DNA from: an uncultured Verrucomicrobiae bacterium
GTDB taxonomy: Bacteria; Verrucomicrobiota; Verrucomicrobiia; Limisphaerales; Palsa-1400
Direction: 5' to 3'
Assembly (NCBI GenBank): GCA_963702845.1
Contig: OY969763.1
Span: 800,001-864,000, forward strand
DNA length: 64,000 nucleotides
In this document: piece after piece, positions 42,401-48,400 of the stretch
Layout of the letters: each line of letters begins with the position of its first letter
How positions within the stretch are numbered: position 1 is the first letter of the stretch
Made by a program: the position numbers

Positions 42401-45400
42401 TCGCGGCGACAGGCTTTTGCGGCGGTGGTGGCGGTGCGAAGGTCTGAGCTTTTTCCAGCGGCTTGCGCATCTGCGCGATGATCTGTTTTGCGAGTTCGCA
42501 ATTGGCGCTGTGGCCCGGGCGGACGGCAATGATGTGTCCACGAATCGGGCAGCCAACCAATGAAAGGTCGCCGATGATATCGAGCATTTTGTGCCGAACA
42601 AATTCGTCCGGGTAACGCAATGGTTCGGTGGTAAGGATGGCGTCGTCGCGAATGACCACTGCATTTTCAAGGCTGCCACCTTTAATCAGACCGTTCTTGA
42701 TGAGAAACTCGATTTCTTCGAAGAAACAAAATGTGCGTGCGTGCGAGAGTTCGCGCTCCCAACTTTCGGGCGTGATCTCGAGGCTGTAAAACTGAGTGAA
42801 GCGCGATTTTTTGTCGGCGCTGGTACACGTGATTTTTAGGCCGTCGTGTGGGAAAACCGAAATGGTAGCGTCGCCGGATTCCAACATGATCGGTTCTTTG
42901 ATGCCAAAACTTTCGCGCGGCTCGCTTTGGGCCTGGATGCCGGCGGTCTCCAACATCTTCATGTATTGCCGCGCGCTGCCATCGCCGATAGGCGGTTCGT
43001 TGGCATCGATTTCGACGATCGCATTATCAACTCCGCGTCCGGCGAATGCAGCGAGGACGTGTTCGACGGTGTGAATCTTCGCGTTGCCTTTGGAAAGGGA
43101 TGTCGAGCGATTGGTGGTGCTAACGTAATCGACCTTTGCTTCGATCTCGGGTTTGCCTTCCAGATCGACACGGCGGAAACGGATGCCGGTGTTGGGCGGC
43201 GCGGGCAAAAACGTCATATTGACGCGATTACCACTGTGCAGGCCGATGCCGGAGAAACTCGCTGGTTGACGCAGAGTTTGTTGATGTAACACGCGAGAAT
43301 AAAACAGTGCAGGGCTAGCTTTGGCAAGCGGCGAAACCGGCCGCACGGTAACGCAAAAAAAGTCGCGGGAATGTTGCTACTAGTTGCTACAATTAGCTAC
43401 TAACGGCAACTGGTAGCGATTTTGTAGCTACTTTCACTCATCTTAAAAGCGGCCCGCGCGGAGCGACGGCCCTACCAGAGCCCCTTCGGATTTTGCGGAG
43501 TCTTACGGAATTTTGCGGAAAGATGCGTTATTTCGCAGTGAAAACGCGGTGTTTTTTGGTGTCTGCCATCGGCGTATGCGCCTCATCCACAGGGGGCAAC
43601 GCATGAACCAAGCTCTTTTTGAGGGGGTGGGTCTTTTTTAACCGCAACTATCCGTAACTCTCCGAAACTCGTTTTGAATTCGAAAACACAAGTTCCGAAT
43701 TAATAACGAATTAGCGCAATCCGCCCAAACTGGACACAAATGAAAACATTTGGACCAATTTAGCGACAACCAAACTCAACCCTGATCGACAGATATTTGT
43801 CTGCATTTCAAAGAGCTTCCGCCTTCGCGCAAGGCTACGGCGCGACTGTGCCGCCTTCTGACGGGCGGCCGGGACATGCATCCATCCAGTAAGAGGAGCA
43901 GGCCCACGCCGACGCTTTGGTCGGCATTGAATGTTGTAGTGTGAAGGGGCTTACTTTGCAAGTATGAAGGGCTTGCCGATAAGCTCTTAGGTCAGGCTGT
44001 GGTAGTTGTCCTGATGAGCACTGACATGGATGTCTGATGGTAATGCATGAAGACCGAGTCGATATAAACGAAGTGCGAAAAGAACAGGTCCAAAATGAAA
44101 GGCAGTTAAAATGAAGATATTTCACGCGTCATTAATTAGCGCGACGGTGTTCGTAATGGTTGTCGGCTGCAAATCGTCCTGCAAGGACGTCTCGTCCGAA
44201 CCAAGCGGCGCTGCCGTCGGTTCGTCCGTCATCACTGTCAGTTCTCCGGTCACTGTCAGCTCACCCATTACAGTCAGTTCGCCGGTCAGCAGCACAGCCA
44301 ACCAAAAGGGCGAGTTCCTTTTCGTGCAAAACGCCAAAGACGTGAGCTTCGACAAAGGAACAATGACGTTGCACGAGGTTAATCCGGTCACTGTCTGTTT
44401 CACTGATCGGCCCGAGCGTATCGCCGGACATATGCCGACGGCGAATATGATTCCGATGTGGTCGGAAGGAAAAGACAGCTTCTTGCACGATCCGCCGAAC
44501 GCCACTCTCTCGCTGGTCGGGGAAACCAATGCAAACAAAGTTTCTGATGTCGTGATGGTGCTTAGCAATCCTCGTATGTCAGGCAGCGACTTGACCTACG
44601 ACATCCGCGTGTTGGAAGGAACTCCTCCGGCACACGGCAGCGATTGTTCGCTGTTTATCGACATTATCGGAATGCCACTGACGCCGTATTCCTATGCCGG
44701 CGCAGCTCGCCGTGCTTACCGAAGCGGTTACATGCATCCAGGTTACATGTATCCAGGCGCTTACGGCCCCGCGTTTGTTCCAGTCGCGCCAGTTGCAGTC
44801 GGGCCCTTGGGCCGGCCGTATTTGCGCTGAGCAAACAACAGGATTAAAAATTTCCTCACCGTGCGGACGAGGGCTGGGATGAGCGTTCGCTCCAACTGCA
44901 TCGTTACGAATTAGAGCGATTGCCAAAATTGATTTCCGGAATGGCTGCTGACGTCTGTCATCGGGGGCTGGAGGTTTGAAGGGGGGCCGTAGCCCCAAAG
45001 GGGCGACTCAATAACAGCCCAGGGCAACGCCCTGGGAAACGGGATGGCGCACCAAATTATAAGCCCTGAAAGGGCGTCCTAATCCCAAACGTATCGTTCA
45101 TCAAACGCAACGTTGTGCCGCTCCAGAAATGACCGGTATTCTTCCTGAAAAGATTTCTTCCGATGATGTTCCTGTTGATTGGCGATGTATTCTCGCACCA
45201 CCGGAACGTTCGACTCGGAAACGGCGAACGCACCATATCCGGCCTGCCATGCGAATGCGGCAAATTCATTTCCCTCGGTCTTGATCCATCTGGACGAAGT
45301 CTTTTTTACTTCCTCGACTGCATTGGCGACGGAGACGGTCCGGCCGAGTTCAAAAAGGATATGGGTTTGATCGGCCACCGAGTTAATGAGCACGGGTGGA

Positions 45401-48400
45401 CAATCGAAATTTTGCAGGACGGTCGCCATGTAGCGATGGAGTGAATCGTGGACATGGTCATGGATGAAGGGTTCGCGGTTCTTCGTGCTAAAAATCAGGT
45501 GGATGTGCAGGCTCGCGAGCGATTGAGGCATTGGTTGATGTCACGGTGCATAAAATCGTTTTACGCGCCAAGCAAAGAATAGGACGCCCTTTCAGGGCTT
45601 AAATTCGTTTGCGGCGTTTTAAACCCAGGGCGTTGCCCTGGGCTGGGGTTGAGCCGCGCCGTTGGCGCTGTAGACTTTTCCAGGGTGCTGGAGGTTTGAA
45701 GAGGGGCCTTGAAGGGGGGGGGCGGGGAAGCCCCAAAGGGGCGACTCAATACAGCCGAGGGCAACGCCCTGGGAAACGGGATCGCACCAAATTATAAGCC
45801 CTGAAAGGGCGTCCTAATCCCGAAGCCGGAGATTTGAAAGGGCGCCGGGGAGCCCCGAATGGGCGATTCAATACCGCCCGGGGCAACGCCCCGGGGAAAA
45901 CCGTCACGCGAATAGTTGAGCCCTGAAAGGGCGTCCTAATCCCGAACGTATCGTTCATCAAACGCAACGTTGTGCCGTCGTCGTCCCTTTTAACCTTTTA
46001 ACCGTGGCCGGAGAAATTCATTTCTTCGGAAACAGGAACGTGATGTCAAAGCGCGAGCCCCAGTCCGGACTTCGCCCCACGCTGGTTGCCGGGTCCAAGC
46101 GATGACGGGTCCGCAGTGAAGCTTGGAACGTTGCCGGAACCGCCCACAGAATCAATAAATCTCCCCGTCGCGCCGCGGCGCAAGGAATCAGCGAGGCTGA
46201 ACAATCGGTTAGTGGTAATAGTAACAAACCTGCCGTCAGCACAACCATCGCGATTTTTCGCACCGTAGTCCTGCTACAAAATACGGCAAACCGCGATGCC
46301 CATGCCATCCATGTCCAGCTTGCCGAATTACCCATAAGCGCAGAAAACTTCCGCAGTCGTTTAATTGACTCGCAAAGCATGTCGGATAAGGAATTAGATG
46401 AAGTCGAACTACAGTTTAAAATTTGCCGAAAAAAACGCACGCCAGCGGCCGAACCGCGAGTCGCGGCGCGCCGCACCGCACAAGCGTCGAAAGATAATCA
46501 ACGCATGCGTCTCGTTGGTCTTAGGCCTTTTTGCCGGCAATCGTGTGTTTGCGGATGAAGCAGTCATTAGTTCGCAACCAAGATTTGATATTGATTCCTG
46601 TCGATCTGTTTGGACTTGCGATGTCGGGGACGGCTTTCGAAAACACGCAACCGAAGTTGGAATTAGCGGTGGCTACGGAATTGGTTTGCTCGCGCTCGCA
46701 TCAGAACAGCGCCACGATCTGGTCCTGGCCGATGTGCATATTGGGACAATGCTGAGTGGGCTTGTGGCCAAAGACCATTTCTGGCGAGGCAATTGGGAAT
46801 TGCTCGGGCAACTATTCGGAGGTGAGCAGATCAAACCGCGCAATGCCTACGTGGTTGGTGCGGCACCGTTGCTCCGTTACAATTTTGCGACCGGCACGCG
46901 TTTGGTTCCGTTCATCACCGGCGGAGCCGGGGTGTCGTTGACCGATATCCGGCATCCGGACTTAGGCTCGGACTTCGAATTCAATTTGCAAGGCGGAGTC
47001 GGAGCGCATTGGTTTTTCAAACGCAACGTATCAGCGATGTTGGAAGGACGCTGGTTGCACTTGTCCAACGCCGGAATCGATGAACCCAACAATGGTGTGA
47101 ACACGATAATGATCTACCTGGGCGCGAATTGGTTCTTTTAGAATTCTGCAGACAAGGTTTCAAGGGGCGGAAAATGTTGTAAGGCTTGTATGGTCCGCTG
47201 AAGGGGTAAACGAGATGAACTCGGGTTTTCCAAAACGGTCGATGCAGAAACGATGCAAATTTCTTCGACGGCTGCATTGGCGACGGAGACAGTCCGGCCG
47301 AGTTCAAAAAGGATATGGGTTTGATCGGCCACCGAGTTAATGAGCACGGGTGGACAATCGAAATTTTACAGGACGGTCGCGATGTAGCGATGGAGTGAAT
47401 CGCGGACACGGTCATGGATGAAGGGTTCGCGGTTCTTCGTGCTAAAAATCAGATGGATGTGCAGGCGCGCGAGCGATTCAGGCATTGGTTGATTGTCACG
47501 GTGCATAAAATCGTTTTACGCGCCAAGCAAAGAATAGGACGCCCTTTCAGGGCTTAAATTCGTTTGCGGCGTTTTAAACCCAGGGCGTTGCCCTGGGCTG
47601 GGTTGAGCCGCGCCGTTGGCGCTGGAAGGATTTCGTTCCGCAGTGTGAGTGTTGGGGCGGCCGTTGGCGCTTTAGGCTTTTCTATGGGGCTGGAGGTTTG
47701 AAGGGGGGGCCGTAGCCCCAAAGGGGCGATTCAATGCAGCCCAGGGCAACGCCCTGGGAAACGGCATCGCACCAAATTATAAGCCCTGAAAGGGCATCCT
47801 AATCCCAAACGTATCGTTCATCAAACGCAACGTCGTCCCTTTTCACCTTTAACCTTTTAACCTTTTAACCTTTTAACCGTCGCCGGAGAAATTTATTTTT
47901 TCGGGAACAGGAACGTGACGTCAAAGCGCAAACCCCAATCCGGACCGCCACTGGGTTTGTCGGCGTAATAGCGATAGCCGAACTGGAAGGCCACGGGAAG
48001 TTTGCAGATCTTTACCAACTGCTGAACAGAAAAGTTCAGCGGCACGGTCCACTCGCTGTTTTCCCAGTTGTAAGTCGATTCGGTGTTCACCCCATAGGTG
48101 GTTTTTTTCTTTGTCGTGTAGGTAAGGAAGGGTTGAAGGAAAGTGGAGTTGACGGCCGTATCACCCCAGCCCGCGTAGGACCAGATATGATTGGCTAGAA
48201 TCCCGTAAGTCCAACCGTGTTGCTGCCGCAGTACCACGATGGTCGGGCCCGCACCCCATTTGCCGGCGCCCAGCACGCTGTCGGTTGCGGTGGGATAATA
48301 CAACACCGGCCCGGCTCCAATGACCCAACCGCAGACCGGTTTTTTCGGGGAGAGAAAGAAGCTCTGCGTGGTGTCACCCAAACCGGAGTGACTTTCCCGG

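Follow-up and report, generated by a model that had tools for sequence, protein, structure and literature searches.

Is Acido-Lenti-1 an RNA gene, or is it part of a mobile DNA repeat? Encyclopaedia text on the motif is said to place it near group II introns and plasmid genes and to raise a role in mobile elements as a possibility. Rfam files it (RF01687) among sRNA genes; in their summary table, Weinberg et al. 2010 (PMC2864571) give it neither a 'tson' nor a 'rep' flag. No paper was found stating that Acido-Lenti-1 is a transposase-associated, REP-type repeat. This had been proposed in the survey's finding on the present locus, and the analysis presented here supports that reading and extends it to homologous loci of many genomes.

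The window, i.e., the whole stretch of 64,000 nucleotides analysed, contains one full-length Y1 gene (R1), one broken copy of it, and four gene-less modules of the 3' type, three of which retain a remnant of the gene's 3' end. Six RF01687-type copies lie within 44991-47758 and a seventh at 59211; the copy at 47714-47758 is the only one in the window to reach the RF01687 gathering score of 37 in cmscan. The features are presented in Table 1.

Table 1. Modules and Y1 genes of the window (window positions), further Y1 genes of the genome (genome positions), and repeat families.
Feature	Position	Strand	Description	Evidence
RF01687-type copy	44991..45036	-	Outer part of module 3' of intact R1; h1 CCCAGGGC/GCCCTGGG, CT, h2 GCCCC/GGGGC	cmscan 31.0 bits, E 2.3e-4; structure scan
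h3 hairpin	45063..45075		GCCCTGAAAGGGC; between R1 stop codon and h1	Exact motif search; fold
R1, Y1/HUH gene	45079..45531	-	150 aa	Pfam PF01797; NF033573
h3 hairpin	45586..45598		GCCCTTTCAGGGC; 5' of R1; mirror image of h3 45063-45075	Motif search; fold
RF01687-type copy	45624..45669	+	Outer part of module 5' of intact R1	Structure scan; cmscan 23.1 bits, only with a 111-nt stretch searched alone
Gene-less 3'-type module	45729..45821	-	h2-h1 45729-45773, h3 45798-45810; ends abruptly ~11 nt past h3	cmscan 30.6 bits (45729-45773, -); blastn 96% to 44991-45086
Degenerate 3'-type module	45839..45977	-	h1 = CCCGGGGC variant; h3 45920-45932; remnant of last 13 codons of Y1 gene at 45939-45977	tblastn (remnant); motif search
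Broken second Y1 gene copy	47234..47485	-	Residues 1-83, 82% identical, internal stop	tblastn E 5e-40; PF01797 match containing one TAA
5'-type module of broken Y1 copy	47541..47623	+	h3 47541-47553; RF01687-type copy 47579-47623	cmscan 34.0 bits; fold
Gene-less 3'-type module	47714..47833	-	RF01687 copy 47714-47758; h3 47783-47795; 30-nt remnant of Y1 gene 3' end at 47804-47833	cmscan 38.3 bits
Isolated 3'-type module	59211..59356	-	11 kb away; copy 59211-59256 (indel in stem); h3 59281-59293; remnant of last 19 codons of Y1 gene at 59300-59356	RF01687 28.9 bits; tblastn 100% over 19 aa (remnant)
R2, Y1 gene	genome 3188809-3189261		Flanks of same design, h1 loop 15-24 nt
R3, frameshifted Y1 gene	genome 3500455-3500868		Flanks of same design, h1 loop 15-24 nt
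Family A			CCCAGGGC stem; 6 strict copies and 3 degenerate	Structure scan
Family B			CCCGGCRY stem; 8 copies	Structure scan
Family C			CCGTGGGW stem; 10 copies	Structure scan

R1 had been reported to be bracketed by inverted, outward-facing copies 43 and 93 nt from its ends, and both distances and orientation are confirmed. The same bracketing had been claimed for the broken gene, which is wrong: the copies at 47579(+) and 47714(-) are both on its 5' side, and the latter belongs to a separate gene-less unit with its own h3 and gene remnant. Given that the remnants at 45941 and 47804 have an identical junction with the flanking DNA, at least two of the gene-less units derive from local duplication. 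With a gene that reads QTH at its metal site, a broken copy and gene-less modules, the window holds a decaying system.

A module consists of hairpin h3, a spacer of ~20-25 nt, the 8-bp hairpin h1 with GCT(A/G) directly after it, ~10 nt of spacer and the 5-bp hairpin h2, for a length of ~93 nt here and ~95 nt in other genomes. The pair flanking a gene stands in mirror image, with h3 closest to the gene and h2 outermost. When the module at 44991..45036 is folded as single-stranded DNA together with its h3, the three hairpins h3, h1 and h2 are obtained (z -3.3). Each RF01687 match corresponds to two of them (h1-CT and h2), and the module agrees with the Rfam family in its two hairpins, GCUA tail and spacer; one copy in the window and many copies on Y1 flanks pass the gathering score. 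The model omits h3, although the position of the h3 at 45063..45075 is conserved in other genomes, and covers only the short-loop variety of h1, hence it misses many Y1 flanks whose h1 loop is long. For the flanks of R2 and R3, with h1 loops of 15-24 nt, the hairpin1-CT-spacer-hairpin2 design proposed earlier is borne out. Read on the opposite strand, h1 and its tail form a hairpin with a (G)TAG or CAG foot, and footed hairpins of this type are a hallmark of REP elements.

The structure scan yielded 49 matches in the genome, versus 15, 23 and 8 in three Markov-1 controls, and recovered families A, B and C, i.e., the three subfamilies of intergenic copies described before. Two of the copies listed then, 4254464 and 5637633, deviate more from the pattern and were missed by the strict scan. 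Multiple genome matches above the gathering score were also seen, but instead of the seven reported there were five among the 150 scored of 1108 candidates. Type C hairpins have a GTAG foot, type B hairpins TAG and type A hairpins CAG. Type A, which flanks R1, is low-copy: two of its ~9 copies in this genome are away from Y1 genes or remnants, while G121 has ~13 copies and G125 has four, all at the gene. No Y1 partner gene was found in this genome for types B and C, which adjoin Y1 genes in sister genomes only and are thus orphans here. Twenty-six copies in this genome lie in ORF-poor DNA, with a median longest containing ORF of 95.5 aa versus 418 at random sites. Distinct repeat types crowd into the same gaps, e.g., at genome positions 395031/395243/395401 and 1603012/1603135.

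Beyond this genome, the module is tied to the Y1 gene by position and orientation. The outward-facing design adjoins the gene at 127 of 152 homologous loci from many genomes, and the outward h1-CT-h2 was not found at the other 25. It is present on 197 of the 304 flank sides, compared with 68 for the inward sense, three when the flanks are dinucleotide-shuffled, and 6 of 196 control stretches taken 700-960 nt away. For the 80 loci with R1 relatives, 82 of 115 structure-scan matches fall within 200 nt of the gene ends (31.5 kb), 66 of these outward, whereas 11 fall in the 331 kb beyond 500 nt; the resulting densities of 2.6 and 0.033 matches per kb differ 78-fold. An outward copy occurs at 42 of these 80 loci (on both sides at 22), at fixed distances of ~41-55 nt from the gene. 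Related genomes are non-independent samples.

The Rfam model itself yields 14 matches with E<=0.01 on 12 unselected loci, nine of them within 200 nt and seven of those nine outward. On 40 loci from other enzyme clades of the same order it yields 31 matches (25 within 200 nt, 23 outward), of which 13 reach the gathering score, with a maximum of 55.3 bits against the cut-off of 37. Flanks at or above that score are found at 10 of the 40 loci, and at 23 no outward match within 200 nt and E<=0.01 was found; in 20 close loci only two matches reach the gathering score. Y1 genes are present in 85 of 121 genomes of one order of Verrucomicrobiota, and the reported co-occurrence was reproduced exactly: 76 genomes with motif and Y1 gene, 13 with the motif only, 9 with Y1 only and 23 with neither.

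Covariation was assessed on 72 flank copies picked by the h1 anchor alone. In this set 97.8% of cells pair and 9 of 13 pairs present compensatory change, Watson-Crick in both stems, with 53 double changes versus 4 G-U cells and 19 mismatches, a result matched by none of 500 shuffles. Stem changes that are almost exclusively double and Watson-Crick fit pairing required on both strands. Moreover, hairpin types are specific to enzyme clades: on the enzyme tree they require 40 changes versus 93.4 when shuffled (none of 200 shuffles was as low), and type B forms one clade. The modules are also dispersed in many copies. Several sister genomes have RF01687 counts of at least 46, many copies having identical scores, and in G120, G035 and the present genome (G000) the dispersed copies have all three hairpins of the module. 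The abundant family of G035 flanks a Y1 gene (L153) on both sides; among the five genomes whose families score highest, three (G120, G072 and G001, all fragmented assemblies) yielded no Y1 gene so flanked.

R1 matches Pfam Y1_Tnp (PF01797, E 3.7e-23) and NCBIfam transpos_IS200 (NF033573, 55.9 bits versus a cut-off of 55), and its closest solved relative by sequence is IS608 TnpA (PDB 2a6m/2vhg, E 1.2e-4), with which this enzyme type shares fold family, Y and Q spacing and, putatively, hairpin recognition on single-stranded DNA. Its metal site reads DQTHI versus DH[VI]H in homologues; HuH occurs as DH[IV]H in 105 of 111 homologues, among which QTH in its place is unique. Given the loss of the first His of HuH, R1 may be inactive. 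The homologues' Y motif is of the IS200 kind, Y---Q (YIxxQxEHH), and the enzyme has the WQ motif common to REP-associated subclasses. Judged by sequence, the R1-type enzyme fits TnpA-Y1 subclass 1.2, listed without REP by Quentin et al. 2018 (PMC6006769). It shares with the description given there a length of ~148 aa, HuH as DH[IV]H, WQ, YIxxQxEHH, a conserved 30-aa C-terminal tail, low copy number and low identity between copies of one genome, and departs from it in that the genes here are flanked by inverted three-hairpin modules and are themselves common in Verrucomicrobiota. The survey labels the enzyme a RAYT, but classical RAYTs are more distant from it than IS200 transposases are.

REP/REPIN-RAYT systems, or REPtrons, are reportedly represented by E. 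coli TnpA-REP and the Pseudomonas fluorescens RAYTs, in work attributed to Nunvar 2010, Bertels & Rainey 2011, Ton-Hoang 2012 and Messing 2012. As in these systems, a small low-copy HUH/Y1 gene with WQ has inverted palindromic flanks, the same repeats occur gene-less in intergenic DNA, several enzyme/repeat pairs per genome each have their own repeat type, and hairpins carry a conserved short foot (in types C and B). Unlike in these systems, the repeat combines three hairpins, type A is low-copy with a CAG foot, close A-clade enzymes appear across phyla (by MAG labels), and IS200-type Y---Q--HH replaces the Y---NP of class 2 RAYTs. TIRtrons (Di Nocera et al. 2013, PMC3733652) likewise have tyrosine transposase genes with long inverted repeats at their flanks and moderately abundant repeat families; some TIRtrons/TIRYTs join a degenerate GTAG REP to an unrelated stem-loop, and GTAG REPs are reported from Verrucomicrobia and Planctomycetes. 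Of the 26 TIRYTs described, 20 are in subclass 2.1, long proteins with an HTH tail (Quentin 2018, PMC6006769). Unlike the present case, the account of TIRtrons in PMC3733652, as far as it deals with these repeats, mentions neither Rfam nor this enzyme subclass.

The modules might instead be the ends of autonomous IS200-like insertion sequences, in which gene and inverted flanks move jointly and spread horizontally, the gene-less copies being MITE-like, with no domesticated, vertical RAYT-REP partnership. R1 lies just above the IS200 cut-off and the Y motif is of the IS200 kind. However, IS200/IS605 ends, as in IS608, are asymmetric hairpins in one orientation, whereas the flanks here are mirror images; IS200/IS605 copies are many, near-identical and often accompanied by tnpB, whereas Y1 copies within one genome are few and 47-49% identical here, and no tnpB was found beside the Y1 gene in the window. 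A-type copies are nearly confined to Y1 genes or remnants and gene 3'-end remnants accompany three gene-less modules, yet gene-less modules far outnumber Y1 genes in sister genomes, and the junction common to two remnants indicates local duplication instead of separate insertions. The explanation is further favoured by six of the 152 loci, which are embedded in type I restriction loci with direct repeats of the host at their borders, and by A-clade enzymes 80-87% identical on short branches in MAGs labelled as different phyla, though these labels may be wrong. Taken together, this explanation seems unlikely.

An sRNA gene as filed by Rfam would be a transcribed two-hairpin RNA, acting in trans or stabilising neighbouring messages, with the nearness to Y1 genes incidental or regulatory. 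The rating of 'probably RNA' with strong covariation in Weinberg et al. (PMC2864571) favours it, although the excess of double changes observed here fits both-strand pairing. The hairpins would fold in RNA too, the fold having been computed with DNA parameters only, and literature abstracts describe effects of REP elements on mRNA stability in other bacteria; yet copies lie on both strands, mirrored around one gene, every unit has a third hairpin beyond the Rfam model, the hairpin sequence follows the enzyme clade and many copies per genome are identical, which makes an RNA gene very improbable. Ordinary palindromic terminators or protein-binding sites, recurring by chance without a tie to the enzyme, would agree with intergenic, GC-rich hairpins and with differing repeat types accumulating in the same gaps. 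Nevertheless, no T run follows h1 or h2 at the examined flanks (window, R2 and R3), and the 78-fold enrichment at Y1 genes, the near absence of the design from shuffled flanks, and the fixed distances and outward orientation, unexpected of terminators, leave this explanation hardly credible.

We consider it probable that Acido-Lenti-1 corresponds to h1-CT-h2 within a module of three hairpins, mirrored around subclass-1.2 Y1 genes, scattered gene-less elsewhere, and mobilised by the enzyme. If it acts as IS608 TnpA and E. coli TnpA-REP do, this enzyme would bind the folded hairpins on single-stranded DNA and cut next to them, with the conserved CT that follows h1 or h2 as candidate site; such cutting would move or copy modules, and the modules would have no RNA role. 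Given the mirror-image copies on both sides of an IS200-like Y1 gene, the RF01687 motif is best read as a REP-type mobile DNA repeat, and not as an RNA gene.

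The actual repeat unit is a module of three hairpins: the two hairpins of the RF01687 (Acido-Lenti-1) motif, h1 and h2, and a third one, h3, which lies between each flanking copy and the intact Y1 gene of the window, R1. In gene orientation, the order is h2'-AG-h1-spacer-h3-[gene]-h3-spacer-h1-CT-spacer-h2. When folded as single-stranded DNA, all four modules tried yielded exactly h3, h1 and h2, with z from -2.3 to -3.3. The window contains five 3'-type and two 5'-type modules, whose coordinates are collected in the table below. Copies 44991(-) and 45624(+) are placed 43 and 93 nt from the ends of R1, the distances given in the survey's finding being correct. 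The RF01687 model, with a curated gathering score of 37 bits, was run with cmscan on window 44500-48200. Copy 47714-47758(-) scores at least 37 bits and hence belongs to RF01687, and the other six window copies remain under the gathering score, at 23.1-34.0 bits.

Features of the window around the Y1 genes and their modules, in window positions
Feature	Position	Strand	Remark
tRNA gene	31150-31220	-
RF01687 copy	44991-45036	-	31.0 bits (cmscan)
h3, GCCCTGAAAGGGC	45063		3'-type module, beside R1
R1 ORF	45079-45531	-	Pfam Y1_Tnp match, E 3.7e-23
HuH site of R1	45361-45375		DQTHI, codons 53-57
h3, mirror image	45586		5'-type module, beside R1
RF01687-type copy	45624-45669	+	structure complete; 23.1 bits, solely when searched alone
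RF01687 copy	45729-45773	-	30.6 bits (cmscan)
h3	45798		3'-type module
degenerate RF01687-type copy	45839-45888	-	seventh in window
h3	45920		3'-type module
duplicated block	45941-46075		gene remnant, junction and 3' end of next gene
outer-membrane-like ORF	46018-46476
PagL-like lipid A deacylase gene	46398-47141		PF09411, E 2e-19; between the two Y1 loci
DQTH of broken copy	within 47138-47347		same codons as in R1
broken second Y1 gene	47234-47485
h3	47541		5'-type module
RF01687 copy	47579-47623	+	34.0 bits (cmscan)
RF01687 copy	47714-47758	-	38.3 bits (cmscan); sole window copy at or over gathering score
h3	47783		3'-type module
duplicated block	47804-47945		gene remnant, junction and 3' end of next gene
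second junction	47838-47880		short run of CCTTTTAA repeats
outer-membrane-like ORF	47893-48798
RF01687 copy	59211-59256	-	28.9 bits
h3	59281		3'-type module

The broken second gene had been described as bracketed by copies in the same way as R1, which does not hold, as both adjoining copies are on its 5' side. Copy 47714(-) opens a separate, gene-less unit that has 30 nt of the Y1 gene 3' end. The remnants at 45941 and 47804 join the 3' end of the next gene at an identical junction, and hence local duplication produced them rather than two independent insertions. The two outer-membrane-like ORFs of this region have only their C-terminal 40 residues in common, which end in FLFPKK.

Three subfamilies of the repeat had been proposed, and the three corresponding h1-stem families, types A, B and C, were recovered by a structure scan whose sites exceed those of Markov-1 controls. 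The strict scan (8-bp stem with at most one mismatch, loop 3-5, CT, spacer 7-14, perfect 5-bp stem) found 49 sites in the genome versus 15, 23 and 8 in the controls. When the h1 loop was allowed up to 30 nt, there were 53 sites versus 7-10, with approximately 14 extra long-loop copies of the kinds flanking R2 and R3, the other Y1 genes of the same genome. Type A (CCCAGGGC stem) has six strict and three degenerate copies, all except two at R1 or the remnants; type B (CCCGGCRY stem, TGAA loop) has eight, which are the top RF01687 scorers (41-43 bits); and type C (CCGTGGGW stem) has ten. Twenty-six A, B and C copies were located in ORF-poor DNA, and h3 is also present at most of the B and C copies. 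On the opposite strand, h1 and the GCUA(C) tail form a (G)TAG-footed hairpin. Compared with the GT[AG]G foot of REP hairpins, type C has GTAG, type B has [ACT]TAG, the CCGG types have TTAG, and both type A and the long-loop types have CAG.

Modules of type B, type C and the long-loop kind crowd the same intergenic gaps (genome 395031-395446, 1603012-1603179 and 4433437-4435199), and these mixed gaps recall BIMEs, the mosaic clusters of REPs in enterobacteria. A replication-strand bias was also considered: judged by GC skew, replication starts near 4.7-5.1 Mb and ends near 2.2 Mb, and 11 of 18 B/C copies read on the leading strand, a split without clear bias. The sequencing runs listed (10 entries) are all small-share DNA metagenomes, with no RNA data set among them.

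R1 encodes 150 aa with the motifs YIANQQEHH and FAWQAGY. It barely passes the NCBIfam IS200 model (55.9 bits vs the cut-off of 55), its closest solved relative is IS608 TnpA, and its tail is alignable across all 111 homologues. H-x-H is kept in 106 of these 111, among which no sequence other than R1 has Gln at its first position. As DQTH is common to R1 and the broken copy, the change is older than the duplication. R2 and R3 have DHVH. R1 fits the family but is a HuH variant that may be inactive. R3 (L002:1354-1917, genome 3500308-3500871) is frameshifted near codon 13, its first strand is degenerate, and it is therefore probably a pseudogene. The modules on either side of R3 are nevertheless intact, and another module pair lies downstream. 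Hence, given the DQTH of R1 and the frameshift of R3, the Y1 system of this genome looks to be in decay.

A PF01797 search of the genome yielded three further Y1 genes of other classes, at 1145414, 3340030 and 3663575. For neither type B nor type C was a Y1 partner found in this genome, there being no B or C copy within 5 kb of these three genes. Two of them, outside the window (genome 1145414-1146397 and 3340030-3341010), encode 327 aa of the NHFH/YVHLNP kind, class 2.1-like, and each is edged by its own short terminal inverted repeat in place of hairpin modules, a layout similar to that published for TIRYTs.

Y1 genes related to R1 and R2 are present in 85 of 121 genomes of the same order, often with several diverged genes per genome, and the co-occurrence reported by the survey was reproduced exactly (76 genomes with both, 13 with the motif only, nine with the gene only and 23 with neither). 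As had been claimed, the Y1 gene lies between inverted copies of a palindromic repeat, a REP-RAYT trait that was observed at R1 and at other loci. When 80 loci encoding R1/R2 relatives were structure-scanned, 82 matches were within 200 nt of the gene ends, 66 of which face outward, typically at -48 and at +41 to +55; just 11 matches were obtained in 331 kb beyond 500 nt. An outward copy was present at 42 of the 80 loci, and on both sides at 22. Considering all 152 Y1 loci, an outward h1-CT-h2 was found within 260 nt at 127 and on both sides at 70. In terms of flank sides, this corresponds to 197 of 304 outward, 68 inward and three after shuffling, and only six of 196 stretches 700-960 nt away carried h1-CT-h2.

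At gathering score, the Rfam model yielded only two matches at the top 20 close loci, and E-value searches and the structure scan were therefore used. At the 12 top unselected loci, 14 matches had E<=0.01, nine of them within 200 nt, of which seven were outward. On 11 loci picked for a positive scan, six of 20 matches reached gathering score. Of the 29 best loci from the same order, most resemble R2 and R3 and have the same design with a conserved 15-nt h1 loop, and two loci (L099, L102) are intermediates, with an A-type h1 stem around a long loop. Forty loci of lower-ranking enzyme clades were taken by rank alone, at many of which B-type or C-type modules flank the Y1 gene. The Rfam model found 31 matches there, 25 within 200 nt and 23 outward; 13 reached gathering score, the top one with 55.3 bits. 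Seventeen of these loci were positive, 10 at gathering score and six on both sides. Given these B and C modules at Y1 genes of sister genomes, the best RF01687 scorers of the genome under study are gene-less relatives of gene-flanking modules.

A quick maximum-likelihood tree of the Y1 enzymes was used to relate enzymes to hairpins. Hairpin types cluster by enzyme clade, with 40 changes versus 93.4 when shuffled (none of 200 shuffles was as low), and the B type corresponds to one clade (SH-aLRT 88). Since relatives have labels in common, this clustering is a description of cognate pairs and should not be taken for an independent test. Regarding dispersal, RF01687 has at least 46 matches each in genomes G035 and G120, whereas G003 and G049 have 44-45. 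Many copies on different contigs have identical scores. The dispersed copies of G120 and G035 are sharp-ended three-hairpin modules. In the high-copy family of G120 (L183-L186, L199), h3 and h2 are identical (GTCCCTGNCGGGAC), such that h1 is flanked by two copies of one small hairpin. A cognate gene was searched for in the five genomes with the highest-scoring families. In G035, Y1 gene L153 is flanked on both sides by that genome's abundant family, the difference being one compensatory pair; in G049 the abundant family is at a Y1 gene with looser resemblance; and in the fragmented assemblies of G120, G072 and G001 no Y1 gene flanked by the abundant family was found. The dispersal expected of a REPtron, i.e., a REP-RAYT system, was thus observed in G035 and not seen in those three. 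Type A has two copies away from gene loci in the genome under study, and its h1 pattern has 0-15 copies in five large records, low counts that argue against naming type A a high-copy REP.

That the motif is an RNA, as Rfam files it, is the much less likely reading. The summary table of Weinberg 2010 (PMC2864571) rates it 'probably RNA; strong covariation' and flags it neither as a transposon nor as a repeat, and a 2026 preprint still gives its function as unknown. No literature link between RF01687 and Y1 genes was found; Additional file 1 of Weinberg 2010 was outside the scope of this search and might hold a remark on transposases. The structure is maintained by Watson-Crick covariation. In 72 flank copies picked by their h1 sequence anchor alone, with h2 unselected, 97.8% of cells are paired, and nine of 13 pairs show compensatory change. 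The same set has 53 double changes versus four G-U cells and 19 mismatches, which none of 500 shuffles reached. So few G-U cells are consistent with pairing on both strands, a scarcity that hints at DNA rather than proves it. The encyclopaedia page of the family reportedly hints at a mobile element.

The enzyme may be compared with known systems. In an ordinary IS200/IS605 element the subterminal hairpins are asymmetric and share one orientation, whereas the modules here are mirror images; such elements have many near-identical copies, often with tnpB, whereas the paralogues here are 47-49% identical, and no tnpB-sized ORF was found beside R1. The class 2 signature of REPtrons, Y---NP, is absent, the enzyme here having Y---Q--HH. 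Length, WQ, YIxxQxEHH and C-terminal tail place R1 and R2 with subclass 1.2 in Table 1 of Quentin et al. 2018 (PMC6006769), where this TnpA-Y1 subclass is given Y---Q--HH, WQ, approximately 148 aa, a conserved C-terminal tail and HuH DH[IV]H, the last of which R1 and the broken copy lack. The same source gives its range as Cyanobacteria and Bacteroidetes, lists it without REP and generally without terminal structures, and ties the WQ residues of REP-associated subclasses to GTAG-foot recognition. The outward-facing modules at 127 of 152 loci contradict this repeat-less description but not the classification of the protein. Di Nocera et al. 2013 (PMC3733652) report GTAG REPs in Verrucomicrobia and Planctomycetes, as well as compound inverted repeats formed by a degenerate REP and another stem-loop. 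By membership, the enzyme falls into subclass 1.2, towards IS200 within the Y1 family, and not among the class 2 RAYTs; the repeat is a compound variant. The survey's observation holds with small corrections, and its reading of the motif as the REP of a RAYT is supported: the motif behaves like a REP, or like the terminal inverted repeat belonging to a RAYT-like enzyme, whose mechanism and activity we infer. The A-type unit may be either domesticated or an autonomous element that still moves horizontally.

In six of the 152 loci (L004, L005, L006, L008, L009 and L010), all close R1 relatives, the unit is between type I restriction hsdS and hsdR, called by Pfam Methylase_S and ResIII/HSDR_N (e.g., L006:1241-2641 and 3560-4684). 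Pieces of the ends of these host genes flank the unit as direct repeats, which measure 98 nt (99% identical) in L004 and 31 nt in L008. Enzymes 75-87% identical to R1 (L004-L023), on short branches in the A clade, belong to MAGs assigned to Verrucomicrobiota, Planctomycetota, Acidobacteriota, Pseudomonadota, Chloroflexota and Methylomirabilota; either the unit has been transferred horizontally, or bins are mislabelled or contaminated. An inverted module doublet (L039:2765-2965) has a sub-threshold match to WsnRNA46 of Wolbachia (RF02625; 51.9 bits vs a cut-off of 65.3, E 4e-8), a family that might also be a repeat doublet.

Our broadest proposal, to which we assign somewhat less than an even chance, is that subclass 1.2 is a separate REP-mobilising lineage whose three-hairpin modules underlie essentially all Rfam annotations of the abundant 'Acido-Lenti-1 sRNA', in Verrucomicrobiota, Planctomycetota and Acidobacteriota as well as beyond them, that each clade reads its own hairpin type, and that at least the A-type unit (gene and flanks) still moves between phyla, sometimes inside type I restriction loci. 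If true, the orphan family RF01687 would be retired, thousands of automatic 'sRNA' annotations would become mobile DNA, and the published account of subclass 1.2 as repeat-less would need correction. The Y1 family would then have a REP-type system on its IS200 side, which bears on the origin of RAYTs from transposases, and the clade-specific hairpins would constitute a natural table of enzyme/hairpin pairs for single-stranded DNA recognition, i.e., a directly testable enzyme/substrate set.
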